This document shows, in pieces, positions 14,061 to 31,370 of a stretch of DNA of 64,000 bases. The notes below the pieces were generated by a model that was not told the DNA's origin, did not search any database, and saw only the letters and a program-made list of their open reading frames with translations. Position 1 is the first letter of the stretch. Each line of letters starts with the position of its first letter. Origin of the DNA: an uncultured virus (IMG/VR IMGVR_UViG_2061766007_000688) (lineage: Duplodnaviria > Heunggongvirae > Uroviricota > Caudoviricetes). The stretch lies in IMG/VR virus record IMGVR_UViG_2061766007_000688; one strand, 5' to 3'. The position numbers were made by a program, and so were the translations under genes.

Positions 14061-14977
14061 CTAAAGAATTGACAAGAGGGAATATTCGACAGCGACAGCA
14101 CTTTCTACTTCCCCGACCTTTATTCCTCTCTCCATACTTCGCAATAACTTGCAAGCTGCCACAAGTTCTTCATCAAGATACTGGTCAACATACGGCTGAA
14201 CAAGTTTTACTTGAAATCCGTTCAACCCCGTACTCTTTGAGATTGAGTCTCCTGTTGATGTTTGTACTTGCAATAGATTCCTAAGATTGTCATACAGCAC
14301 AGTAATTATTACGAGGTCTGCTTCTCCTACACCTCTGCACTCTGCTAACAGTCTGAACACTCTCTTAGGCTTTCTCGACATTACTGCGGCTACTAAATCA
14401 AAAATAGCATCTTTCGGCGGCACATATATGGNNNNNNNNNNNNNNNNNNNNNCATGTCAGTGCATTTGTATTGCCACATTCTTTTTATCTTGTCTATTTC
14501 TAACAATATTCTTCCGTAGTCATTCTCGCATATCTCTATCAACCGCTCACAGTAGTCATCACTCAAATCGGCAAGCTCTTTATGGATATACTTTGTCAGA
14601 ATACGGTTATCTAAATGCTCAAACATGACCGCCCGGTTTTTGAAATTTTTCCAAAATTTTAACCTACCGTCTACAGATGTAAATTGAAAAATTACCAAAT
14701 CGTTTTTGAGATTTTTCACCCTATCCCACAACTTCTCCTCTTTGATAAATTCTTTGTCATCATAGATGAGATAAAGAGTCGGCACTGAAAGTATTGACTT
14801 CATTTTTACTTTCGTCAAAACTGAGGATAATTTATCTACAACTTCAAGACGATAGTTTCCTTTTTCAACTATCTTCTTTATATAGATATTCATTACCTCA
14901 ATCTCATCTCCTGCAAAGATATAGAAGTCATCAAACTGTCCGCTCTTTATATGTGCTTTAACTGTCCCGATGTCCAT
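14061..14977 (-). CDS. holA: Clamp loader delta subunit (HolA-like); frame broken at N-run
   Basis: FYIFAGDE...LIEICENDYGRILLEIDKI...IFDLVAAV...LLRSMERGIKVG; adjacent to dnaX/holB. Confidence 0.7.
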
Positions 14978-18127: not shown

Positions 18128-18499
18128 TTAAATCAATCTCTTAACTCCCTTTTTCTTCTTAGCAACTACTTGTGCCGCTTGTTTTGGTCTTTGTTCAATC
18201 TCCAACAGTCTCTCTGCTATTGCTATAATTTGGTTATCATAAGTCAGATGTGCTCCACTACTACCGTCCCAATCTGAAAACTGCTCAGCAAATTCTACCT
18301 CTTTCGCAATATCAGGATGTTCTGTCTGCAACTGTTCAAGTTCTTTCGCCCATTTTATCCACTTTGCATCAGACACGATGTTGGTGTCTTTCTCATAATA
18401 GAGATAAGAATGAACCAACATCTGNNNNNNNNNNNNNNNNNNCTCTGCAACTGTCTGTAAGGGTTTACTTATCAACTGTCTTACCGAACTCTTTGCCAT
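18128..18499 (-). CDS. Stand-alone NAD-ligase domain Ia-like protein
   Basis: HSYLYYEKDTNIVSDAKW...ELEQLQTEHPD resembles the LigA N-terminal helical hairpin. Confidence 0.65.
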   Translation of the reverse strand: MAKSSVRQLISKPLQTVAEXXXXXXQMLVHSYLYYEKDTNIVSDAKWIKWAKELEQLQTEHPDIAKEVEFAEQFSDWDGSSGAHLTYDNQIIAIAERLLEIEQRPKQAAQVVAKKKKGVKRLI

Positions 18500-19465: not shown

Positions 19466-20492
19466 TTATATCTGAGCATCTATATAGTTCTCAATGAATG
19501 TTAAAACATCCTCATGTTCTACATCTCTCAGATAGTTGTACACATTTGGCATACCCTGTATCTTCTCTGACTTACACTCGCCAGTATCAGGATCAACTAT
19601 TGTGAACCACGCCCCCGACTGCTGTATCATGTCATACTTCAATGCTACATCTACCAAGTCTCGCAAGTAGTTTATGCCGTTAGCATAATCGAGACTGTAG
19701 AAACCACCTCTTCTGTTAGGCGGACATGTCTTGTTCTTTTCCATTGACATCAGCACTATATTTCCTGCGGGGCTTTCTGATGACTTCTTTATCTCCTCAC
19801 CCTTATCATTAAGAAATGAACCTCTTCTGAACTCCATTCTTACTGAACAGAAATGTTTCAGTGCTCTACCACCCGGCGTTCTTGTTGCACCAGGATACAA
19901 ACTCTTCAAGTCATCTCTCACCTGATTTATGAAGATAAGGGTGACATTATTCTTTTTGCAGGCAAGCTCTGCTTTCTTCACAAACTTTGTCATAGCCATA
20001 GCGTTTCCTGCATACTGAGCATCCCCTATATCTCCTTCAAGTTCTTTTGCAGGTATAAGAGCGGGCACACTATCTATAACTCCCATACCTATCTCACCGT
20101 TTGTGATGAGTGACAGCATAATGTCCAACAACTCTTCTGCACTCTCAAACTCAGGCTGAATTATAATTACTTNNNNNNNNNNNNNNNNCAGCCCAAACAG
20201 GATCAAGTGCGTTCTCAGCATCAAGATATGCAACAGGTCTATCGTCTAACTGCTGATAGTTAGCGATATTATCAAGTGCTGTACTTGTCTTACCACCATG
20301 CTCTTCACCAGAATACTCAATCAATCTACCTGTCGGTATACCACCGTAAGTACAGTAGTTCATTCTCGGTGAAGTGAACGGTATTCTCTGATATACTTCT
20401 CTTGACAGGCCAAAATGAATAATCTCTGCACCGCTTTTCTTGTTTATATTCTTCATAATGGTGTCAAGGTCTAACTTTGCTTCCTTTGCCAT
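19466..20492 (-). CDS. recA: RecA-like recombinase (frame broken at N-run)
   Basis: GGIPTGRLIEYSGEEHGGKTS, DAENALD, VIDSV, FINQVR, TPGGRALK. Confidence 0.93.
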
Positions 20493-21863: not shown

Positions 21864-22657
21864 TAGTTATCCTTTCCGCACCGGTTTCTAAACCCGCAGT
21901 AATTGCACACACGCTTATCAACATTAGGTTTAGGTGGCACTATCTTTCTCTTTATGTATCCGTTGACATACTCAATGTAGTCTATAATAGTCTGTCTCAT
22001 GTCATCAGTAACATTGAACATAAAGGTTTTCATGTTCAGCATGTCTCTGTCAACATAAAGGAATATTACATCGTTTAGACCCATAGACAGTGAATAAGCA
22101 ATACCTTGATTGTAGTGCTTAGGATCTACTCCCTCTCTTGCATACCACTTACTACTTGTCTCCGTCTTTATTTCAAGAATATAATATTTCTTCTTGTACC
22201 TGATAATACCGTCACACATGAATGACATGTTGTACTTCTTATTGTATAGCTTCGTCTCAAAGCCATGCTTCTCTCTTATCACCAAATCTGTGAGTTTTCT
22301 GTGCTCTACAAACCATGCTACATCTATGTATTCGCATGGTATATTATTTGTCTGCATAAGTGATACTGCATTCTGCACCCTTTCATGTATATCAGAACCA
22401 GAGTTCTGTATCTGAATAGAGTTGAATGTGTTGGGTGTATCATCAGGCTTCTCACCCATTATCTGATAATAAGATGACCTAAAACAGTTCATCCCGCTCG
22501 GCTTAAATGTTTTAGAGCCAGGTGACCTGCCTTTTGCATCTGTCATCTCGATACTTCTTTTAAGGTCAGACAAAAATTGAGCCTCTACCGGCTCTTTACT
22601 CACATGATTGGCTTCATCCAGTAAGCGTGATACATTCTTCAAACTGCTTCTGCTCAT
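21863..22657 (-). CDS. Cas4-like PD-(D/E)xK exonuclease with Fe-S Cys motif
   Basis: PSGMNC, CDGII, LEIKT, QGIAY, CNYCGFRNRC. Confidence 0.85.
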   Translation of the reverse strand: MSRSSLKNVSRLLDEANHVSKEPVEAQFLSDLKRSIEMTDAKGRSPGSKTFKPSGMNCFRSSYYQIMGEKPDDTPNTFNSIQIQNSGSDIHERVQNAVSLMQTNNIPCEYIDVAWFVEHRKLTDLVIREKHGFETKLYNKKYNMSFMCDGIIRYKKKYYILEIKTETSSKWYAREGVDPKHYNQGIAYSLSMGLNDVIFLYVDRDMLNMKTFMFNVTDDMRQTIIDYIEYVNGYIKRKIVPPKPNVDKRVCNYCGFRNRCGKDN

Positions 22658-22702
22658 ATCATAACCTGGGGAGAGTTTTTATCTCTCCCCGCCTTTCCTT
22701 TC

Positions 22703-23857
22703 TTATTCTTCGTCATCTTCTGAATCATCTGCGAACGGCACTATCTGCTTCACATTTCCCTCAGATATCTTGAGGCCTGTGTCTTTGCCATAGTTCACAA
22801 CAATCTGCTCTGCGTGGTTAGATTTGATGATTGAGATGAGGACATTGATGTTCGTACTACATACAAAGTCTGAGAAGTTAGTACTCTCAATGTACGGTAT
22901 AATCTCATGTCCGCTCTGTGACTTACTTGTGATTGCTATGCCCTCTTTTGTGAAAGCAATATCAATCTCACCGCTGTCAACTTTCTCATTAACAAACAGC
23001 AACAGTCTGTCAAGCAGGCTGACAAGCTTTGTTCTGTCAATCTTACATGAACTCGGATACGGCTCATCGAGAAGTGCTTCAACTGCATCGAGCGGGAACT
23101 CATCAACATTGTCCATGAGTTTGCCGTACACAATGACATCTGATGTGATGAACTCAATATCCTCTTCGCTGTACTTAACATGTACATCTTCCTTTGTCAG
23201 AACATCGAGAAGATTTACAAGGTCAGCATGAACGAGAACAGCAGGATCAAACATCTCTATGTCGATACCACACATCGAGAATGTGTCTGTTGTTACTGCC
23301 TGCTTACCCATGAAGTATCCTGTGTACGGACTGCCGCTACTCTGCTCGTTTGTAGGAAGCACCGATGATTTCGCTGTAGTCATAATGAGTCTGAGTGTTG
23401 ACAGCTTTGTATCTGCCTCGTTCCACTCACTGTCATCTGCATCTTCAACAGGGTCAGGAAATCTTACAAGGTCTCCGTTCTCATCATACGGTAAGTCAAG
23501 TGAGTAGTTTCCGTCTGCTTTGACTACAAGACAGTCAGCAGCCCCGCTGTCGCCTGTCTTTACAGACATTTCAACATTCTCGCTTGTAAGCTTTGAGATA
23601 AGCCGCGCAAACTTATCTGCATACACAACGACATAGAAATCATCTCCTGCTACCTTATCTTTCTGAACATACAGGTAGTTGCTGTAGTCAGTTGTGATAA
23701 GTCTGAGTACTCCGCCTTTGAGTTCGATAGCCATGAGCTGTGTCATCAAGATATCTGCATTTGACGAACAACCCTTGATTGCTTTTGCAACCATTGTCTT
23801 GAACTCTCCTACATTCAGTTTGAGTGCTTTTGTTTCTGTTTTTGCTTTTTTCGCCAT
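22703..23857 (-). CDS. dnaN: Sliding clamp (DNA pol III beta-like)
   Basis: 384 aa, LRLITTD / AVTTD repeats, three-domain size; clamp loader genes nearby. Confidence 0.7.
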   Translation of the reverse strand: MAKKAKTETKALKLNVGEFKTMVAKAIKGCSSNADILMTQLMAIELKGGVLRLITTDYSNYLYVQKDKVAGDDFYVVVYADKFARLISKLTSENVEMSVKTGDSGAADCLVVKADGNYSLDLPYDENGDLVRFPDPVEDADDSEWNEADTKLSTLRLIMTTAKSSVLPTNEQSSGSPYTGYFMGKQAVTTDTFSMCGIDIEMFDPAVLVHADLVNLLDVLTKEDVHVKYSEEDIEFITSDVIVYGKLMDNVDEFPLDAVEALLDEPYPSSCKIDRTKLVSLLDRLLLFVNEKVDSGEIDIAFTKEGIAITSKSQSGHEIIPYIESTNFSDFVCSTNINVLISIIKSNHAEQIVVNYGKDTGLKISEGNVKQIVPFADDSEDDEE

Positions 23858-23938
23858 TTCAAATTCCTCCTTTGGTTATTTGGCTTAATCTTTTATATGT
23901 ATATGATATAACAAACTAAAAACTGCTACAACACGGAG

Positions 23939-24316
23939 TTACTCATCCGTTGCTTCAAACTTCAAGCCGCCTACTTCCCAAACAAACTTCTGTAACTCTG
24001 CTGTTGTAAACCCTTCTTCATCATTCTGCCACTTGTTATAATAGTCGAGCATACGGTCTGTAAACTTGCGAATGTTTTTCTGATAGTTCTTTGGCCAGAA
24101 GTTCTCGTCAAGTAACGACTTAATGGGCAGTGAGAATAACAATATCATGGCAGTATTGATAGCATCTGACATTGCATCTGCTTTTATCTTCTCTTTAGCA
24201 GGCCCCAACTGCTTTTCCATTTCTCTCTTTACAAGCATTGTTAACTGCTCCTGAGTAAGAGTAAATGTTGCCTTCTTTGCTCTGTTCTCTCTCAACTCTT
24301 TTCCTTTGTTACTCAT
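23939..24316 (-). CDS. Hypothetical protein
   Basis: 125 aa ORF coupled to upstream glycosyltransferase. Confidence 0.6.
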   Translation of the reverse strand: MSNKGKELRENRAKKATFTLTQEQLTMLVKREMEKQLGPAKEKIKADAMSDAINTAMILLFSLPIKSLLDENFWPKNYQKNIRKFTDRMLDYYNKWQNDEEGFTTAELQKFVWEVGGLKFEATDE

Positions 24317-25170
24317 GCTTTCTTATACCTCCCCGATATTATTTTTGGCACGGCTGCGTCCCAATCTATATTATGATGTGGTCGATAGTGTCTATCTCCC
24401 ATCATCCCTACCTTTACACAAGACGGGCTACAAAGCACTGTGTAGAAACTCTTCTGATATGTTCCCACACCTAAATACAAATCTGCCATACCGCCTGCTT
24501 GCGACTGTGTTTCTGCTTGGTCTATCATCATAAAGTCAAATGTTATGAATATCTGACCTCTTGAACCGTTACACACATAAGCATTAACATCCTCATTTAT
24601 TGTGCCGTTGAATATTATCCTTCTGTCTGTCTTACAGATAAAACTATTCATGGCTTTTCTGAGATAATGCTTTCTGACAAGATTACTCCCTACTCCACCA
24701 ATATAATCTCCTGCTTGACCAAAAGCTACTGTGTAGATGTTCTCATTAGTCTCAAGGAAATCAAGATGTGCTTCAAATACTGCGTCAAGGTTAGCTCTTG
24801 TACTGCGATAGAATACTCCATCTTCTTCCCAGCGATATGGGTTTGAGATATAGTCATCATCATACTCGCAAAAATATTTCAATCCCTCTTGTTCTGCTAT
24901 GTCATAGCAAGCGTTTCTTGCATACACTATACACTTACGGTGTTTAGGAATATCCATCGTGTCAAACTTTTTCACGACTTCATCCTTAGAGAAAATCTTC
25001 ACATCATCACCATAGATATCTACATAGTTCTGCAAGTCCGGGTCTTGGTCATCACACACTATCAAGATTCTTCCTGTGTACCCATACTTTCTCAGAGTCG
25101 CATAAGTCGGGGTGTTTTCTGCTCTGCCGTGACATATTACCATTACAGCGAACTCATCAAGCTTGCTCAT
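24313..25170 (-). CDS. TAGT/GREB1-like glycosyltransferase (start MSKLDEF)
   Basis: CHGRA, GYTG..IVCDDQD, YARN, YDDDY, NEDV, GGMADLY, HH..W...PKI. Confidence 0.75.
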   Translation of the reverse strand: MSKLDEFAVMVICHGRAENTPTYATLRKYGYTGRILIVCDDQDPDLQNYVDIYGDDVKIFSKDEVVKKFDTMDIPKHRKCIVYARNACYDIAEQEGLKYFCEYDDDYISNPYRWEEDGVFYRSTRANLDAVFEAHLDFLETNENIYTVAFGQAGDYIGGVGSNLVRKHYLRKAMNSFICKTDRRIIFNGTINEDVNAYVCNGSRGQIFITFDFMMIDQAETQSQAGGMADLYLGVGTYQKSFYTVLCSPSCVKVGMMGDRHYRPHHNIDWDAAVPKIISGRYKKA

Positions 25171-25729
25171 TCTTTTCACCCTCTTCCACAGGTGCAGGCA
25201 TGAAGTCAACAAAGTCGTCTGCTTCTTTCTCTGTCTGCTCAGGTGCTTTTTCTTTCTTCTCTTTTGCTTTCTTAATAGCAAGCTCCCTCTGAGCTTTTAG
25301 CACTCTTGCGGCTTCTCTTGCTCTGCTGTCTCTCTTTTTCTCCTCGTCTATGAGCTGACGCATCTTCTCTGAAAGAACTACATATCCATTTGCTATTGCG
25401 TCATCCATGTCGAGAATTACAAGAGCTGACTGCTCCATCAATCTCTGCATTTCAGGTGTTGCATGGGCATAATAATCCGCTATCTTACTATAAGAGAAAA
25501 CGATGTGCCGAGTGGCAGCGAGTTCGAGGAATTTCTTTTCTTCTGCTGATACTTTAGACTTCTTAATGGCATTGAGAAGTTTGCCATATTTCTCAGTGTC
25601 ACACAACTGAGCTATTACAGGCTGTTCATTACTCGGTGTGTACTGAGGTACTGTTATTGCCCGTGAGTACTTTGTGTCGTTACCCATGGGATTCTTCTTT
25701 GCTCTGTCATCTTTCAACAACTGTTTCAT
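25157..25729 (-). CDS. Glycosyltransferase-associated helical protein
   Basis: FLELAATRHIVFSYSKIADYYAHA..MQRLMEQSALVILDMDDAIANGYV; sandwiched between the two transferases. Confidence 0.6.
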   Translation of the reverse strand: MKQLLKDDRAKKNPMGNDTKYSRAITVPQYTPSNEQPVIAQLCDTEKYGKLLNAIKKSKVSAEEKKFLELAATRHIVFSYSKIADYYAHATPEMQRLMEQSALVILDMDDAIANGYVVLSEKMRQLIDEEKKRDSRAREAARVLKAQRELAIKKAKEKKEKAPEQTEKEADDFVDFMPAPVEEGEKNEQA

Positions 25730-25794
25730 GCTGTTCTCCTTTCAACTGTTTGTGTATCTTCTAATGATGATATTATACATCAGCACACAAACTA

Positions 25795-26649
25795 TTACAA
25801 GTTGGAATATCTCGAACTGATTATCTTTGGAAATGTGTTTTCTCTTTGTACTGCACCATACCATCGTGTCTTATAGTACTGTGCTTTCATAGATGTAGGA
25901 CAATACATTGTTTCACACTGCACAAGCTCTAAACTATCCTGTGACTTATAAAGCTCTGTCATACCGCCGTCTGATTTGCCTTGAACTACCATATCATTGT
26001 GAATAACAGGCATATTCATCCACACATTTCCGACAATACTACTTGTGCAAGCTGTTATCAAATCTTCTCCGTATGAGCCTCGCCAGTCAACTTTATGCTT
26101 GCTGTTCCTAAACACAAAATTATAGGCTACTCGATTATTGCAAGTAGTAACTGGTTCAAAAACACTTGTGCCTTTAAGATATGAAGATGTAAAGCCAAAT
26201 GAAAGGGCTGTCAAGTCAGCGTTCACAAGATAATCTACAAAGGTGTCTGCTACTTCATCAAAGTTCTTTGTTATCGGCAAAGCTCTTAACTTTCCGTCCT
26301 CTATAAATCTGTACCTTAACTGCTTTGTGTCATCATCTGAAATAACAAATGTTTTGAGGTTAAGCCCTTTTGCAAGTTTTTCACATGCACACTTACCATA
26401 CAGAATTACTTTTCTGAACAGCTTAGGTCCATAATCTACATGTTCTATGTAGTCTTGCTTACAAAACACATAGACGCCTGTATGGTCATCTTCGTACTTG
26501 CTACTTAAACTATCGACGGTGTCATCCTCATCATCTACTACAAGTATTATCTCTCCTGTATAACCCGCTTTTCTCAATGTTTCAAGAGTGTACTGCTTAT
26601 CAGGTCGACCGTGTGTACATATCATTATTGCAAAGTTTTTATTCCTCAT
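25795..26649 (-). CDS. Second, divergent TAGT/GREB1-like glycosyltransferase
   Basis: THGRP, GYTG..LVVDDED, SDDD, GEDL, GGMTELY, PKIIS. Confidence 0.7.
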   Translation of the reverse strand: MRNKNFAIMICTHGRPDKQYTLETLRKAGYTGEIILVVDDEDDTVDSLSSKYEDDHTGVYVFCKQDYIEHVDYGPKLFRKVILYGKCACEKLAKGLNLKTFVISDDDTKQLRYRFIEDGKLRALPITKNFDEVADTFVDYLVNADLTALSFGFTSSYLKGTSVFEPVTTCNNRVAYNFVFRNSKHKVDWRGSYGEDLITACTSSIVGNVWMNMPVIHNDMVVQGKSDGGMTELYKSQDSLELVQCETMYCPTSMKAQYYKTRWYGAVQRENTFPKIISSRYSNL

Positions 26650-26911
26650 TATCTATGTCCTCAAACTCAACTGTCTTACCATACCATCTGTCTGATACTT
26701 CGACATCACATGAGATAGGAATTGTAAACATATCTCCGGGTGCTTCTGACATTATCTTTGAAAACAGCTCTACAACTTCTTTTGTGTTCTCTTTAGGACA
26801 CTCTGCTATTATCTCATCATGTACAGGTATCAACATTCTGAAACCAAGTTCTCTCAGACGCTCATTCTGAAACAGCTTTATCATAGCCAGCTTGGACATG
26901 TCAGCTGCACT
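26639..26911 (-). CDS. polA: DNA polymerase family A, exon 2
   Basis: SAADMSKLAM...PVHDEII (motif C). Confidence 0.9.
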   Translation of the reverse strand, partial: SAADMSKLAMIKLFQNERLRELGFRMLIPVHDEIIAECPKENTKEVVELFSKIMSEAPGDMFTIPISCDVEVSDRWYGKTVEFEDIDNEE

Positions 26912-27890
26912 CGATTACTCACTATTTTTCAATAATGACCTGACTATCTTTTCAGTGTTACTAAACACTGTCCACCTCTTCCACTTGTAACTCATCTTCA
27001 AGTGTACTTCCCTACAAAGGGAATAGTCGATACACCTTCATAATTTAGTCCAAGAATATCCAAATGTCTTTGCTCTTTTACCATTCTTATTAAACTTATC
27101 AGCATATTTTAGCAAGTTTCCTGCTTCCTTTGTAGGCTTATTCAAGAATCGTAAAGCATCTGACACACACTCAAACTCCTTAATTATAACTTCGTTTTCA
27201 ATCATACCAATTCTAATCTTCTTTGAGTTGTTATAATTTTTGAATGTGTCAATATACTTACCAGACTGACGTTCAGATGTCCTTTTGTTGAACTCTTTTC
27301 GTTTCTCTGTATTTCCAAAATTCCATTCATCAAAAGGAACTCTTGTCTTTTTTACCATCTCTGGGTCAGACATTATTCTTTTATGCTTTTCTCTTACAGA
27401 CAATTCATCCATTGGATTTTCATCCCCACCCCACGAGATGTTGTAACCACCTTCTGTATAATGGGTGTGATAAAACTTGATATAAAATGTTTCAAGCTCT
27501 TTCCAATGTTCATCATCTGTTACACATATTTGCTCTATCTTAAAATTTTCTTTACCATATTTTTGTATTGCATTATGTATGTAAGTGTTATACCACTTAC
27601 AATTACAATGTTGTGAAAATCTATGAGATAAAGTGTATTTTGTCTTGCCTACATACTGCTTTCCGTTAATAAGATTTGTTATAAGGTATATTCTTGTCAT
27701 ATCTACTATCTCCTTTCACATTCATTATATCACTGCGATATGTGAAAATCAATAGCGGATATGTGAAAATTATGCTTGGCACGGGATTAGCATATCTCTC
27801 GACTTAGCCTTCCCCGTTAGCAATTACTTTTGTAATCACACCCCTGAGTAATAAGGTTCAATGGATAAGGGCAGTTAACCGATTTGGTTT
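26912..27890 (-). mobile_element. Group I intron (979 nt, IA2-like) in polA
   Basis: Exon 1 ends IQG (GGU), intron ends in G, exon 2 resumes SAAD; P 27807-27822, Q 27775-27788, R 27024-27036, S 26942-26950; IGS GCCCU pairs with exon AGGGU. Confidence 0.92.
27038..27700 (-). CDS. Intron-encoded GIY-YIG homing endonuclease
   Basis: RIYLITNLINGKQYVGKT...RFSQH...E..YI...GYN..GG; NUMOD-like C-terminus. Confidence 0.92.
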   Translation of the reverse strand: MTRIYLITNLINGKQYVGKTKYTLSHRFSQHCNCKWYNTYIHNAIQKYGKENFKIEQICVTDDEHWKELETFYIKFYHTHYTEGGYNISWGGDENPMDELSVREKHKRIMSDPEMVKKTRVPFDEWNFGNTEKRKEFNKRTSERQSGKYIDTFKNYNNSKKIRIGMIENEVIIKEFECVSDALRFLNKPTKEAGNLLKYADKFNKNGKRAKTFGYSWTKL

Positions 27891-29981
27891 ACCCTGTATT
27901 CTGCTGTTCACTACTTGTCGTGTTGCTTTCTGTCTATCATTTCTGTAGTCGTGTATGATAATACCATGTACTTTTGCTTGATTCTTTATTGCTTCTCTCT
28001 TTGAAGGATCCCATGTCTTATCAAGCTCCCGTGTGTACTGTCTACATATCTTCTCAGGTACTTCTTCATTCTCTAACCCATCGTCATCAAAATCAAGAGG
28101 GTCACCAGACATACCTGCACCTGTTGCATACTCAAACTCATAGTCATTGTGCATAAGAACAGGTAATCTTCTCTTTCTTCCCCAAAGGGTTGTTACATAT
28201 CCCAGAGTCTCAGCCATTTCAAGACTATCTTCTTCAAACTTTCCTATTGCAGGGAAACCTTTCATAACGCTGTCTTTTATCTGCTGTGCTTTCTTTGTAG
28301 ATACTCCCAACTGCTCTGCTATACTCGGTACGCCTCTTCCATATAGCACTCCTAATAAGATACTCTTGGCTTGGCTTCTTCTCTCTTTACCTGCAGGATA
28401 TGTAATCTTCTCTCCGTTCTCATCAAGCACAAAAGAGCCATCTTCATTTGTCATAAACTCGAGGCACTCTCTGTATGATGTGTTAAACGATAATGAGGCA
28501 ATCTGTGCATATAAATCTTTTCCCTGTTGATAAGCGTCTATCATTAACGGGTCTTTGCACATCATTGTCATTACTTTTGGTTCTTGCTGGCTATAGTCAG
28601 CCGACATCATTACATATCCGTCAGTTGCTTTGAACATAGGTCTTATATCTTTATTATGAGACGGTATGTTCTGCAAGTTCGGGTCATTACTTGAAAATCT
28701 TCCTGTATCTGCCCCATACTGATTGAACTTACAATGTACTCGCTTATCTTTCTTGTTAACGACTGTTGGCATTTTTTCTATATAAGTTCCCATTAGTTTC
28801 TCAATACTGCGATATTCGAGTATTGCTTTTCCAAGAGGTGTTTTCATCTTAGCAAGTATCTTTTCTCCTGTGCCTCTTGGGCTATCTTTATCAACTGACT
28901 TCTCTCCCATTATGTCGTAGAGTAATACTGCAAGTTGTTTGGGACTTGATAGATTTATAGGGTCGTCAAGATGAACACTGCCATTATACTGTGCTATCTC
29001 GTCCTTATACATATCTACAATCTTGTAGCACTCTTTCTCCGCTTTCTTTAACAACTTTGAATACTTCTCCTGTAATTCTTTGCAGTATTCAAAGTCAAGT
29101 GCTACTCCTGTGTCCTCAAGTTCTACATCTACTTCTACAATTGGCATTTCTATATTCAGAAACATCCACGACACACCATTCATACCGTTTCTGTCAGACA
29201 TTTTACAAGTAGGGTCATAATAAAGATACTGTTTCTGATACTCATAAAATTCAAGTGTTATCCGAGCGTCATGGGCAGCGTATAAGAAACCAGTCTTTAT
29301 AGGAACAAATGCAAAGTTAAGTCCGTCAAATAATTCATCGAACTTGAAAGCATCTTCCTGTCCTTTAAGCACATACTTCTGATGTAACTTTTTCAGACCT
29401 TTCTGACCCTTCAGCTCATTCTCATTCATACAGCGACTTGCTACTGATGTGTCCCAGAAACATTTTAACAGCACCCCAACTTGATTTTTGATAACACGAC
29501 AGTCGAACACTCCGTTGAACATTACTATCATGTCACGATAACCAGACAGTCTTTCAAGACACTCTCTTGCGTCATCAATGCTCATTTGTTCTTTAACACG
29601 CTGTCCTGTAACAAACGATACATGATTGAGAGGGATGTAAGCTGGGTGTTTTGCAAATGTGGGGCAACAAATACTAAATCCTACAATCTCATCTTGCATA
29701 GGGTCAAGTCCTGTTGTTTCTGTATCTATTGCACATATTCCATCTTCGATACACTGGTCTATATACTTATTCAGGTCTTCTTTAGTTTTGATACATCTGT
29801 ATTGCTCTTTATACTTACCAAGATACTGTTCAACTGTCGCATTGATAGACGATATCCGAGATGAAAGTCCCCCACCCCCTTTTACTGAGGTGGAGGATTT
29901 TTTCTTACTCTGTGTCTTTTTCAGAAGTGATTTATCATGTGCGGCTGAACGAACACTTGGTACATTCAGTAGTTGTTTCAT
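27891..29981 (-). CDS. polA: DNA polymerase family A, exon 1 (3'-5' exo plus polymerase; no 5'-3' exo)
   Basis: IDTETTG, TGRFSSNDPNLQNIP, ADYSQQE, RSQAKSILLGVLYG, NSRIQG. Confidence 0.95.
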
Positions 29982-29983
29982 AC

Positions 29984-30667
29984 TCAGAACTCCTCATCTG
30001 AACTGCGACGGCTTCTTGAAGAGCGTGAACTTCTTGACGGCCTGTCATCTTCGTCACGATCCCTCGAACTCCTTCTTCTTACTGCCGGCTCTTCGTTGTC
30101 ATCATTATCATCCGGAAAATCACCATGGTCAAGGAAATATTCCATCTCTTCTGCTGTCTTGTCAAGAACATATCTGCCGAGAACTTCCGGTACATCAAAA
30201 TCTTCGAGTTTTACATCATCGTCTTTTCCGTCATCGTAGAACTGATATGTAGTGCCCGTGTCTTTAGGCTTGCCGTGTCTTTCGATTTCTGTAACCCAAG
30301 AGAATACATCTTTATGTCTTGACACATATCCTGAGAGTGTCTTAAAGATAGCCTTTCCTCTCTCCCACATCTGCACTTCCTTTGTATCAAGATTGTACAG
30401 CGGTATAAAGCACTTCGCTACAATCTTCATCTTCTCAGCACAGAACGGACAAACATCTATCGGGTCGCTATACTCTCTCAGACAGTTTACAAGCTTTCTG
30501 CTGTCACCTATCTTTACTTCGTGACAAGCATACCCCGGAAAGTCGTTCATGTCTCTGCCGAGTATTCTGACTTTTGCTACATCCATGTCGTTTTCGAGTT
30601 TGAAGTAAGAACCACCTGACCCGTTACCACCATATTTGTCAGCGTCCTCATAACTAAATGTACCCAT
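29984..30667 (-). CDS. Single-stranded DNA-binding protein (gp32-like)
   Basis: YFKL, Zn ligands H..C..CPFC, TTY, acidic tail EEF. Confidence 0.7.
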   Translation of the reverse strand: MGTFSYEDADKYGGNGSGGSYFKLENDMDVAKVRILGRDMNDFPGYACHEVKIGDSRKLVNCLREYSDPIDVCPFCAEKMKIVAKCFIPLYNLDTKEVQMWERGKAIFKTLSGYVSRHKDVFSWVTEIERHGKPKDTGTTYQFYDDGKDDDVKLEDFDVPEVLGRYVLDKTAEEMEYFLDHGDFPDDNDDNEEPAVRRRSSRDRDEDDRPSRSSRSSRSRRSSDEEF

Positions 30668-30668
30668 T

Positions 30669-31370
30669 TTACTTTTCCTCCTTTTTGCTGTTATCTGTTG
30701 GGATCTGTATAAACTGTAACAGCTTAGTCACGAAGTCCTGTGCTGTCTCTTCAAACAACTCGATTGCAAGCACAGGTATCTCATACTTTGTGTGCCAATC
30801 TTCGTGATAAACTGCTGAGTCACTGAATTTCCAGTCGCTACTGTAAGCCTTGAAGAAGTTGTCATTGATACACAACTTTATCATGCCCTTCTGACACTTG
30901 GGCCAGAACTCTACCATGTGTCGGTTCTTTAAGCACAGCGACACACTGCCCTTTGCACCCGGTGCTACTCTGATTGTAGTGCCTTCAACCATCTTTTCGA
31001 GAACACTCTTGATGTGCATTACATACTTAACACTGTCCTCATGACTGACTCTCTTTGTTACCGGTGCTGTTACTGACTTCTCGACAGTCTTGGCTGCCTG
31101 CTTCTTCTCTTCTGCTTCTTTGTGTTTTTCTTCTTCACGCTGGGATTCTACCTGAGATGAAAGCTGAATAACTTTGTCGCCGTTATACTTTCTCCAAGTG
31201 CTCTTGAATGTTGAGAAATTTACATTGAATGAATTTCCGTTCTCATCTCTGAACATGAGAGTTTTGAACTTCTCGTCCCTGCTTTCAAGGACTCCTACCT
31301 TTTTGTTTGTGCGGTTCTCATACATCTGTCCGATGATACCGACTTCTTTTACTTCTGCTGATTTTGCCAT
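30669..31370 (-). CDS. Hypothetical protein
   Basis: 233 aa ORF, own promoter and RBS. Confidence 0.65.
   Translation of the reverse strand: MAKSAEVKEVGIIGQMYENRTNKKVGVLESRDEKFKTLMFRDENGNSFNVNFSTFKSTWRKYNGDKVIQLSSQVESQREEEKHKEAEEKKQAAKTVEKSVTAPVTKRVSHEDSVKYVMHIKSVLEKMVEGTTIRVAPGAKGSVSLCLKNRHMVEFWPKCQKGMIKLCINDNFFKAYSSDWKFSDSAVYHEDWHTKYEIPVLAIELFEETAQDFVTKLLQFIQIPTDNSKKEEK

Follow-up and report, generated by a model that had tools for sequence, protein, structure and literature searches.

The window analysed here is a 64,000-nt stretch of DNA from a cattle-gut phage. It carries a module of three genes placed between polA and the gene for a beta-type sliding clamp, that is, within the DNA-replication operon. 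On the minus strand the order is polA, GT-B, MID and GT-A, where GT-A and GT-B are two glycosyltransferases and MID is the protein encoded between them:

27858..29981, minus strand: polA, N-terminal segment (3'-5' exonuclease and most of the polymerase domain; DNA_pol_A E 6.2e-68, DNA_pol_A_exo1 E 6.9e-13)
26639..26907, minus strand: polA, C-terminal segment (DNA_pol_A profile positions 309-380 of 381, E 5.3e-13)
25795..26649, minus strand: GT-B, accessory TAGT-family glycosyltransferase of the GT-A type, 284 aa (Pfam TAGT, phrog_842)
25157..25729, minus strand: MID, putative helper protein, 190 aa (homologous to the C-terminal domain of ParB_N-containing glycosyltransferase partners)
24313..25170, minus strand: GT-A, core partner-coupled TAGT-family glycosyltransferase of the GT-A type, 285 aa from ATG (Pfam TAGT)
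23939..24316, minus strand: small protein, 125 aa (phrog_16126 E 2.2e-27; no Pfam match)
22703..23857, minus strand: phage beta-type sliding clamp (phrog_947, DNA polymerase processivity factor, E 1.9e-20; weak DNA_pol3_beta match)

The first 11 nt of GT-B fall within the end of polA, the start of GT-A overlaps the stop of MID by 14 nt, and the ATG of MID is preceded by a strong Shine-Dalgarno sequence (AAAGGAG). The most likely start of GT-A is the ATG at 25170 (MSKLDEF...). The start of the 125-aa protein overlaps the GT-A stop by 4 nt; its membership of the module is uncertain, and a homologue at E<=1e-5 was found in 0 of 83 related loci. Promoter and terminator scans gave counts no higher than those of shuffled controls. 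The window includes 1,797 bases masked as N, in 38 short runs, and represents only part of the phage genome, because the terminase gene falls outside it; no integrase was detected among the window ORFs scanned. A megablast search of positions 22000-30000 against the phage collection returned zero matches. Contigs of related phages, assembled from gut-metagenome runs of three other studies, cover the module at about 91% nucleotide identity, and in relatives' contigs polA is unbroken across the junction from 26907/8 to 27891/5.

The original prediction, made from the sequence alone, was of two paralogous glycosyltransferases flanking a helical protein directly downstream of polA, and the coordinates, Pfam matches and paralogy all agree with it. 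Against the Pfam family TAGT (PF20691; curated cut-off 27.5 bits), GT-A scores 106.9 bits (E 1.8e-30, profile positions 1-205 of 205) and GT-B 64.4 bits (E 1.8e-17, positions 1-174 of 205), and both match phrog_842 (E 1.8e-53 and 1.6e-26, respectively). They share 30% identity over about 286 columns (E 3e-25). The HGR, DDxD, DDD, ED, GGM and PKI motifs described earlier are all found in the translations, and residues D40, D102, D103 and D191, belonging to the DDxD, DDD and ED motifs, are invariant in 44 aligned sequences, GT-B included. Searches of NCBIfam and PADLOC with GT-A, GT-B, MID and the 125-aa protein gave zero matches. Structural comparison, suggested as a check on the assignment, bears it out: the AF2 model of GT-A (pLDDT 90.6, pTM 0.89) is predicted to adopt the GT-A fold, with TarP as the best PDB match (Foldseek, E 2e-6), a match that at TM 0.45 and 10–11% identity reflects generic similarity among GT-A folds. 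The best matches of the model in BFVD are TAGT-domain phage proteins (E 7e-31, TM 0.85), and the T-even-type enzyme of Klebsiella phage PKO111 stands at rank 22 (E 7.8e-8, TM 0.58, 14% identity). No membrane segment or signal is evident in the GT-A model or in the module translations.

In a phylogenetic tree, GT-A groups inside a clade of 39 partner-coupled glycosyltransferases, and GT-B in a separate, fast-evolving accessory clade together with L006:3537, L004:8622 and L005:7761 (support 99/95), which has no MID of its own. Accessory enzymes vary from none to two per locus, and MID plus the core glycosyltransferase is constant. GT-B retains 37 of the 79 columns conserved in the core clade, those of the donor/metal half, and its losses are concentrated in the C-terminal, acceptor-side motifs. 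The replacements of YARN by YGKC and of RPHH by RWYG, from which a different donor or acceptor had been proposed for the second enzyme, are present in the translations; GT-B departs from GT-A mainly on the acceptor side, and this divergence fits a second, different transfer step.

By its AF2 model (pLDDT 81.5), MID is predicted to begin with a disordered N-terminal peptide, followed by a core of four helices (about residues 46-100), then a long K/E-rich helix (residues 108-161) and finally an acidic tail. The N-terminal peptide carries a KYSxxIxxPxYxP motif that is nearly invariant, yet predicted to be disordered (pLDDT 53–68); within it Tyr30 is invariant, Tyr21 is conserved and Ser/Thr22 is mostly conserved (Glu in locus L065). 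MID shares 42% identity with the C-terminal parts of phi jlb1 gp024 (E 6e-30) and HHTV-2 gp21 (E 7e-27), both of which carry ParB_N, and the phrog_620 match to MID covers the C-terminal part only. ParB_N itself (PF02195) is absent from MID, from the scanned window ORFs and from the related genomes G001-G004. The 'conserved helical protein' of the original prediction is therefore the tail of a ParB-type partner minus its ParB domain: at the window the ParB nucleotide-binding domain (NBD) is missing and the long K/E-rich helix has been added. Partners consisting of MID without ParB_N also occur in loci L004-L008, L066 and L074 and in Vibrio phages. Foldseek found nothing in the PDB for MID at E<=0.001, an ESM Atlas search gave zero usable matches, a wide VIA-align search produced only coiled-coil matches to the long helix (107-166, Z about 6), and Pfam only a sub-threshold match to the BBS7 hairpin. 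A PDB profile search with the alignment of partner proteins matched only their ParB_N part (ParB/Noc structures, E 1e-9). As the MID core has no recognisable fold relative, the label 'ParB CTD-like adaptor' is a matter of homology to the partner proteins rather than of an established mechanism. The role of activator or specificity factor that had been suggested for the middle protein is plausible.

The view of the module as an orphan could not be upheld: it is one form of a cassette, very widely distributed, in which a ParB_N-containing partner goes with a glycosyltransferase of this clade. A MID homologue lies directly upstream of the glycosyltransferase gene in 81 of 83 loci examined (in the two misses the glycosyltransferase is at a contig end), and all 28 records of the phage collection with MID also hold a glycosyltransferase. 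Natural single-chain fusions of the form ParB_N-MID-TAGT exist (P0121, a cluster of 19 members, and P0122), as does a SAM-MTase-ParB_N-MID fusion (P0123), and a PADLOC model for type II methyltransferases recognises ParB_N of the phi jlb1 partner (E 2.6e-26). Phages carrying the pair, at 39–48% glycosyltransferase identity, infect E. coli, Lactobacillus, Vibrio, Nocardia and a haloarchaeon, and 1,580 of 5,426 complete E. coli genomes contain it. Across these very different phages the smallest conserved unit is MID plus the glycosyltransferase. Neighbours or fusions with likely sugar-tailoring roles at other loci include a cytidylyltransferase, an epimerase, a SAM-MTase and a radical SAM protein.

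The cassette loci include a haloarchaeal virus and the Rac-type prophages of E. coli, in which the pair is annotated as ynaK and 'GREB1-related protein'; counterparts are carried by Lactobacillus phages c5 and phi jlb1, Nocardia phage NTR1 and halovirus HHTV-2. These pairs have in common with the window the same glycosyltransferase clade (39–46% identity), the MID domain (42–54% identity) and the overlapping gene order, a MID-domain gene lying directly upstream of a core-clade TAGT gene. They differ in that their partners carry ParB_N at the N-terminus and mostly lie just upstream of terminase, whereas the window lacks ParB_N, has the long K/E helix and a second, diverged glycosyltransferase, and is placed between polA and the clamp gene. 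A terminase gene occurs within the next three ORFs in 23 of 32 canonical loci, and in temperate phages the cassette is in the classical moron position, between lysis and packaging genes. The pair is found amid replication genes in the window, in L007 and in 195-kb Vibrio phages. The three genes are best explained as the replication-operon form of this cassette. Our literature searches found no published function for ynaK-type pairs or their counterparts, no functional paper on ynaK/ydaY, and no paper combining GREB1, ParB and phage, although supplements may list such cassettes; the available text of a survey of ParB CTPases (bioRxiv 10.1101/2025.10.10.680097) makes no mention of glycosyl partners.

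The namesake context of TAGT-type enzymes is a genomic association with a TET/JBP (5mYOX) or hydroxymethylase gene providing the acceptor, a context found neither at the window nor in the relatives searched. The original prediction had noted the lack of an acceptor-making enzyme, and this holds for the 102 window ORF translations scanned (short, mostly plus-strand ORFs were left out): Pfam detected no Tet_JBP, thymidylate synthase/hydroxymethylase, DNA methyltransferase or queuosine/deazaguanine enzyme among them, and PHROGs likewise gave zero TET/JBP, hydroxymethylase, methyltransferase or deazaguanine matches. The search was also taken beyond the window, as had been recommended. Two complete relatives of about 75 kb (G001 and G002) have no TET/JBP or thymidylate-synthase-type gene, and an ORF-by-ORF scan of G001 found no methyltransferase gene either. 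Six-frame searches with Tet_JBP and Thymidylat_synt at E<=1 gave no match in nine records of relatives, of which four are rated at least 92% complete by CheckV and three are deposited phage genomes of 35–53 kb; the relatives searched with these profiles include G001, G002, phi jlb1, SPF_0923, HHTV-2, G005 and G006. An acceptor-generating enzyme outside the window had been named as grounds for refutation, and the lack of a recognisable one in the two complete relatives weakens that objection. With no such enzyme found, a DNA target would call for direct glycosylation, which is without precedent, or else for a cryptic enzyme. The 233-aa neighbour (30669-31370) was considered as a cryptic dioxygenase and rejected, giving only weak leads to hypothetical proteins and DUF5655.

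We consider it about an even chance (roughly 50%) that the genes form a module for DNA glycosylation in which, with the help of an adaptor, a glycan is built in two steps on an uncharacterised acceptor. GT-A is the conserved core enzyme and would be a metal-dependent nucleotide-sugar transferase of the GT-A fold. MID would be its cognate helper, with the N-terminal peptide and four-helix core binding GT-A and positioning or activating it on a polymeric substrate, while the long K/E-rich helix, which occupies the place of the ParB nucleotide-binding (clamp-forming) domain of other phages, would serve in oligomerisation. GT-B, with its donor/metal half kept and its acceptor side rebuilt, may attach a further sugar to the GT-A product or next to it, in the way that the T2/T6 TAGT does on glucosyl-hmC. 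The substrate is most likely newly replicated phage DNA, and we infer a protective role for its modification. As no recognisable enzyme makes a hydroxymethyl-pyrimidine, the acceptor may be a canonical site in the DNA, or else be made by an enzyme that went unrecognised. The spread of the pair over phages of such different hosts, bacterial and haloarchaeal, implies an acceptor that is universal, such as DNA, or self-supplied, rather than a host-specific envelope polymer. The ParB_N domain of canonical partners, the methyltransferase-model match and the SAM-MTase fusion suggest a link of the partner to DNA and are a point in favour. The moron position in temperate phages is also compatible with a function not involving DNA, and the Tyr and Ser/Thr residues of the MID peptide could be acceptor sites instead of docking residues.

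Known systems offer partial precedents. The founding characterised member of TAGT (PF20691) is the beta-glucosyl-HMC-alpha-glucosyltransferase of T2/T6, after which phrog_842 is named. It shares family and GT-A fold with the module (the structural similarity is only moderate), and is a soluble, phage-encoded enzyme that extends a sugar on DNA, its acceptor being DNA-linked glucosyl-hmC according to the accessible text of PMC13216743. As described there, 5hmC arises in T-even phages through a dCMP hydroxymethylase and is primed by an alpha- or beta-glucosyltransferase, none of which is present at the window, and a partner of the MID/ParB type is not mentioned in that text. In the available part of Pyle et al. 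(bioRxiv 10.1101/2023.12.21.572611, cited as Cell Rep 2024 in PMC13229309), glycosyltransferases associated with 5mYOX (TET) and C5-methyltransferases act on DNA-linked acceptors and, as here, have the GT-A fold, R...DDD...ED motifs and TarP as the top PDB match; sequential enzymes build di- or oligosaccharides on DNA, with ParB-like and clamp genes among the neighbours. They use 5hmC from a neighbouring methyltransferase and dioxygenase, neither of which is present here. About 65% of the glycosyltransferase contigs in that source have no 5mYOX or ThyS neighbour, and the module of the window belongs to this majority.

A precedent for the helper comes from O'Toole et al. (PNAS 2026, PMC13229309), where, in the text available, ParB-like proteins activate phage DNA dioxygenases on dsDNA. 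There 5mYOX176 needs its cognate, adjacent ParB-like protein ParB176, which lacks a DNA-binding HTH, and glycosyltransferases and terminases are frequent neighbours. Both the NBD and the C-terminal domain of ParB176 matter, whereas MID has no ParB NBD, and the partner enzyme of MID is a glycosyltransferase and that of ParB176 a thymine dioxygenase.

A more specific proposal is that MID and its glycosyltransferase modify a canonical base or the backbone of DNA directly, with no hydroxymethyl handle, guided by an adaptor domain that arose as the tail of a ParB-type clamp and is able to work when ParB is absent, and that GT-B extends the sugar. We hold this only tentatively, and it is on balance doubtful. 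If true, a new chemistry of DNA modification would be at work in a large fraction of phages, temperate and lytic alike, and by way of Rac-type prophages it would extend to between about one sixth and one quarter of the E. coli genomes sequenced.

Glycosylation of a protein, though unlikely, is the chief competitor to the DNA reading. The best candidate acceptor would be MID itself (Tyr30, Tyr21 and Ser/Thr22), a replisome, packaging or virion protein also being possible, and MID/ParB would then be substrate or scaffold and not a DNA adaptor. A self-supplied acceptor would explain both the inseparability of MID and the glycosyltransferase across bacteria and archaea and why an acceptor-making enzyme is not needed, and the near-invariance of a peptide predicted to be disordered would fit as well. 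GREB1, a TAGT/JGT relative with conserved catalytic residues in its glycosyltransferase domain, is a mammalian O-GlcNAc transferase that modifies ER-alpha at T553/S554, according to the accessible part of PMC7968844; it is a 1,949-aa multidomain cytoplasmic protein of eukaryotes, so its relevance is limited to proof that the fold family can take a protein acceptor. Against a protein target, Ser/Thr22 is not invariant, the ParB_N domain and MTase fusions of canonical partners point to DNA, and in the sources available the characterised phage members of the family all act on DNA-linked acceptors, and the accessory enzymes and the sugar-tailoring genes of other loci are similar to known DNA-glycan pathways.

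The module might instead take part in conventional hypermodification, glycosylating 5-hydroxymethyl-pyrimidines supplied by a divergent dioxygenase or hydroxymethylase from an unannotated gene, from outside the window or from the host. The terminase region lies outside the window, many ORFs lack annotation, and the thousands of 5mYOX-like contigs without TET/JBP Pfam annotation reported in the available text of PMC13229309 show that divergent enzymes do escape Pfam. Such a source is nevertheless quite improbable given the empty six-frame searches and G001 scan, the failure of the 233-aa neighbour to give a dioxygenase lead, and a minimal conserved unit of MID and glycosyltransferase only. Least probable by our estimate is a TarP-like action on wall teichoic acid, on some other glycopolymer of the host or on a metabolite, as might serve superinfection exclusion; the TarP fold match and the moron-like position between lysis and terminase genes can be cited for it. 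Against it, TarP is also the top match of proven phage DNA enzymes (bioRxiv 10.1101/2023.12.21.572611, available part), the cassette is common to phages whose hosts (Gram-negative, Gram-positive, actinobacterial and haloarchaeal) have envelopes unrelated to one another, neither a membrane segment nor a signal is evident, and at the window the module is embedded in the replication operon of a phage for which no integrase was detected.

The module is a widespread, uncharacterised kit, probably serving to decorate phage DNA, although the known acceptor-preparing enzymes were not found in the window or the relatives searched. Solitary TAGT-type enzymes, an acknowledged puzzle, occur in 288 of 753 glycosyltransferase-bearing phage genomes in the accessible text of PMC13216743, and the window helps to define the minimal unit of this class, tying the glycosyltransferase to a specific helper domain, MID, rather than to the nucleotide-binding domain of ParB. 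With DNA as the target, glycosylation would take place outside the known hydroxymethyl route, with a bearing on restriction and anti-restriction biology, phage engineering and the sequencing-based detection of modified DNA; with MID as the target, phages would have a glycoprotein system of a new kind. The question reduces to two or three small, soluble proteins with an either/or outcome, sugar on DNA or on protein. A possible tether of MID to the sliding clamp was also considered: the C-terminal tail of MID is not conserved among close relatives, and only 24 of the 120 closest homologues have a [FCVA][MI][NAEP]xP motif in their final 30 residues.

The window holds most of a tailed-phage genome in which almost every gene lies on the minus strand, and is incomplete in that the terminase is missing and 38 short runs are masked. 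Its structural, lysis and recombination markers include an SPP1-type portal, a Gp13-like capsid protein, a Dp-1 holin and RecU, and the phage encodes its own replication set (DnaB, primase, polA, beta-type clamp, clamp loader, RecA and SSB). The contigs holding the window derive from gut metagenomes of cattle and other animals. Between polA and the sliding clamp lie the genes for two glycosyltransferases (GT-A and GT-B) and, between these, a 190-aa helical protein (MID), as follows:

29981-27858, minus strand: N-terminal part of polA
27700-27038, minus strand: GIY-YIG homing-endonuclease gene (E 2.1e-7)
end at 26639, minus strand: C-terminal part of polA
26649-25795, minus strand: GT-B, TAGT family
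25729-25157, minus strand: MID
25170-24313, minus strand: GT-A, TAGT family
24316-23939, minus strand: 125-aa protein without known function
23857-22703, minus strand: sliding clamp

Start and stop codons overlap by 11 nt between polA and GT-B, by 14 nt between MID and GT-A, and by 4 nt between GT-A and the gene of the 125-aa protein, and a strong Shine-Dalgarno sequence precedes MID. The module is covered by related-phage contigs from four runs of three other studies; one such contig, 1,900 nt long, spans 24778-26677 with 175 differences. The polA gene is interrupted by an element of about 985 bp (26908-27894, minus strand) carrying the GIY-YIG gene (ORF 27038-27700). In related-phage contigs from four runs, position 26907/8 is joined directly to 27891/5, giving continuous polA alleles that lack the endonuclease gene. 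A group I intron match within the element (26920-27156) is weak and sub-threshold (19.2 bits, E 0.046); the element may be a self-splicing intron, or polA may be genuinely split.

The original prediction of two paralogous enzymes with a GT-A-like fold was borne out: they share 30% identity (E 3e-25), and both exceed the curated Pfam cut-off of 27.5 for TAGT (PF20691), GT-A with 106.9 bits and GT-B with 64.4 bits. Both also match phrog_842 (E 1.8e-53 and 1.6e-26, respectively). All the motifs quoted in that prediction are present in the translations, including the changes of YARN to YGKC and RPHH to RWYG, and the acidic residues of the DDxD, DDD and ED motifs are invariant. For GT-A, AF2 gives a confident model (pLDDT 90.6, pTM 0.89) with a GT-A fold, and TarP is its best PDB match (E 2e-6, TM about 0.45). 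Among viral structures, the best matches (E 7e-31, TM 0.85) are uncharacterised phage proteins with a TAGT domain, while a T-even-type beta-glucosyl-HMC-alpha-glucosyltransferase is found only at rank 22 of the viral matches (E 7.8e-8, TM 0.58). By sequence and fold, the two enzymes are members of the TAGT family, but they lack the genomic context from which the family takes its name.

MID (residues about 11-129) shares 42% identity with the C-terminal region of two partner proteins, one from phi jlb1, a Lactobacillus phage (E 6e-30), and one from halovirus HHTV-2 (E 7e-27). Both partners are encoded directly upstream of the glycosyltransferase and have ParB_N at the N-terminus. In a profile of 42 such partners, the first ~120 positions match ParB/Noc/Spo0J structures (E 1e-9), the MID part has no structure match, and ParB_N is absent from MID itself. 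The MID model comprises a disordered N-terminus (1-37), a four-helix core (46-100) for which structure searches returned no fold relative, a long helix (108-161) and an acidic tail that is again disordered. In the alignment, the peptide KY[ST]xxIxxPxYxP is nearly invariant (Tyr30 fully so), and is followed by FLxxAAxRHxVFxYxxIADYYAHxxxEMQxLMExSALVIxD. The best 120 homologues are all 150-219 aa long and without Pfam domains, and occur on contigs no longer than 75 kb. A motif, [FCVA][MI][NAEP]xP (e.g. DFVDFMPAP, EGFMNEP), lies in the K/E-rich low-complexity tail in 24 of the 120 MID-only proteins that are most similar (P0001-P0120), at residues ~172-180 in the window protein; it could be a docking motif, perhaps for the clamp, and is absent from most relatives. 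Tail conservation lends no support to a role as a tether to the clamp. Public names for the ParB_N-MID partner are inconsistent and probably wrong: that of Lactobacillus phage PMBT4 (L089, record positions 29645-30418) is called an 'adenine-specific methyltransferase' in GenBank, and other records use ParB nuclease or partition protein.

Coupling of MID to the glycosyltransferase is close to complete. Among 83 loci (the best 80 of 396 confirmed IMG/VR matches plus three named phages), a MID homologue is encoded immediately upstream of the enzyme in 81, and in the remaining two the enzyme lies at a contig edge. In a collection of 50,697 phage records, all 28 with MID also carry the glycosyltransferase. 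Eight records have the enzyme without a MID match; six of these are degraded, partial or remnant genes, and two are Porphyromonas phages with a near-full-length but distant enzyme (25% identity). The three domains are fused as ParB_N-MID-TAGT in P0121 (a cluster of 19 members) and P0122, and P0123 is a SAM-methyltransferase-ParB_N-MID protein. The E. coli version, known from Rac-type prophages and consisting of ynaK and a gene sometimes called 'GREB1-related protein' by PGAP, is found in 1,580 of 5,426 complete E. coli genomes, with coverage of at least 80% in 889. Partners with MID but no ParB_N occur in the window, at loci L004-L008, L066 and L074, and in 191-196-kb Vibrio phages, where the pair is flanked by primase/exonuclease genes and helicase genes. 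ParB_N, lost in the window phage, is therefore dispensable, which leaves the MID domain and the glycosyltransferase as the smallest conserved unit. At canonical loci, a terminase is found within the next three ORFs in 23/32 cases and a portal gene in two more. Other MID-glycosyltransferase loci have candidate tailoring genes beside the enzyme (radical SAM/SPASM, PAPS-reductase-like, cytidylyltransferase-like and NAD-dependent epimerase/dehydratase; L008:9526-10596, L007:3465-4346, L034:4296-4745, L022:6105-7079), and there are also fusions of core-type enzymes with a radical SAM or a class I SAM methyltransferase domain (P0125, P0128, P0129, P0131), which suggests that the sugars used across the family are diverse and tailored.

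In a maximum-likelihood tree of 44 glycosyltransferases, GT-A groups with the partner-coupled enzymes, 39 in all (support 94/88), apart from an accessory clade of GT-B and three enzymes of other loci (L006:3537, L004:8622 and L005:7761; 99/95). L007:8720 forms a very long branch, with a degenerate MID still upstream. Of the 79 alignment columns with conservation of 90% or more across the core clade, GT-B retains 37. Those kept include HGR, T19, GYTG, D37, D40, F57, K59, D67, R75, DDD101-103, D126, E190/D191, GG223-224 and Y229, and those lost include QxGD149-152, RKAMNSFIC168-176, N189, VN192-193, Q215, TQ218-219, GTY233-235, KSFY237-240, HH262-263 and W267, a pattern that fits unchanged donor/metal chemistry with a different acceptor. 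MID and the core enzyme are constant while the number of accessory TAGTs varies: none at most loci, one in the window and L006, and two in L004, L005 and the related phage genome G001. Directly after its primase gene, G001 carries two extra small GT2-family genes (L084:14122-15392) that are not in the window phage, so even close relatives differ in their set of glycosyltransferases (five in G001, two in the window).

Four lines of evidence favour DNA as the candidate target. Three are the characterised phage relatives, the ParB_N of canonical partners and its match or fusion to methyltransferase-type proteins (bioRxiv 10.1101/2025.10.10.680097), and the position of the genes, next to replication genes here and packaging genes elsewhere. 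The fourth is the precedent of a ParB-like protein proven to activate a phage-encoded DNA dioxygenase on dsDNA (PMC13229309). Since the pair is common to phages of E. coli, Lactobacillus, Vibrio, Nocardia and a haloarchaeon, its acceptor must be universal or self-supplied, which makes polymers of the host envelope less likely. Among the rival readings, glycosylation of a protein is the strongest: the TAGT/JGT relative GREB1 O-GlcNAcylates ER-alpha (PMC7968844), and the peptide of MID, in which the Tyr is invariant and a Ser/Thr mostly conserved, could itself be an acceptor.

The original prediction that no enzyme making the acceptor is recognisable held. Tet_JBP, thymidylate synthase/hydroxymethylase, DNA methyltransferase and deazaguanine families were found in 0 of 102 window ORF translations (Pfam; PHROGs). 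Because the window is incomplete, relatives were searched as well. Two related IMG/VR records, rated 100% complete, carry GT-A at 82-83% identity. One of them, G001 (74,461 bp, direct terminal repeats), is syntenic with the window: almost every aligned segment has 64-76% nucleotide identity, the exceptions being two matches of 42-46 nt above 90%. Six-frame searches (E<=1) detected no Tet_JBP, Thymidylat_synt or ParB_N in the related records G001-G004, and neither Tet_JBP nor Thymidylat_synt in phi jlb1, Salmonella phage SPF_0923, HHTV-2, G005 or G006. A Pfam scan covering 112 of the 113 ORFs picked in G001 found three TAGTs, MID and the two GT2 genes, and no methyltransferase, dioxygenase or hydroxymethylase. 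A cryptic hydroxylase is a possible source of the acceptor, as many 5mYOX-like contigs (those with TET/JBP-type dioxygenases) are without Pfam annotation according to section 12 of PMC13229309. Given the negative searches of window and relatives, an acceptor enzyme outside the window is unlikely, a very divergent one apart.

With DNA as the preferred target, MID would bind GT-A via its conserved peptide and helical core, and its long helix may oligomerise, occupying the place of ParB_N in other phages. The complex would then act on phage DNA emerging from the neighbouring replisome, and GT-B may add a second sugar, by analogy with the TAGT of T2/T6, which places a sugar onto glucosyl-hmC (PMC13216743), and with 5mYOX clusters, where glycosyltransferases act in sequence (bioRxiv 10.1101/2023.12.21.572611). 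The module would work like the ParB-dependent 5mYOX systems, yet it is not a member of that group. Solitary TAGTs and ParB-like neighbours are noted in general terms in PMC13216743, bioRxiv 10.1101/2023.12.21.572611 and PMC13229309; the literature searched, supplements aside, contained no account of MID as a domain, of its obligate pairing with this glycosyltransferase clade, or of ParB-less variants. The question of the acceptor is readily testable.

Other features of the genome were observed. A stand-alone 123-aa protein (18128-18499, minus strand) is limited to domain Ia, the NAD+-binding N-terminal domain found in NAD-dependent DNA ligase (PF22745, E 7.4e-26), with no ligase catalytic domain seen near the gene, and is also kept in G001 (L085:14499-14864). 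RecA (19466-20492) and a clamp-loader subunit (14061-14977), both on the minus strand, are each represented by two overlapping ORFs; since a masked N run lies at both junctions (20173-20188 and 14432-14452, respectively), the splits may be masking artefacts rather than real frameshifts. Lastly, a full-length Rfam GP20-a RNA motif (RF02991; 62415-62514, minus strand; 72.5 bits against a gathering threshold of 47.2, E 3.7e-11) is situated with the portal gene on one side and the scaffold/capsid genes on the other.
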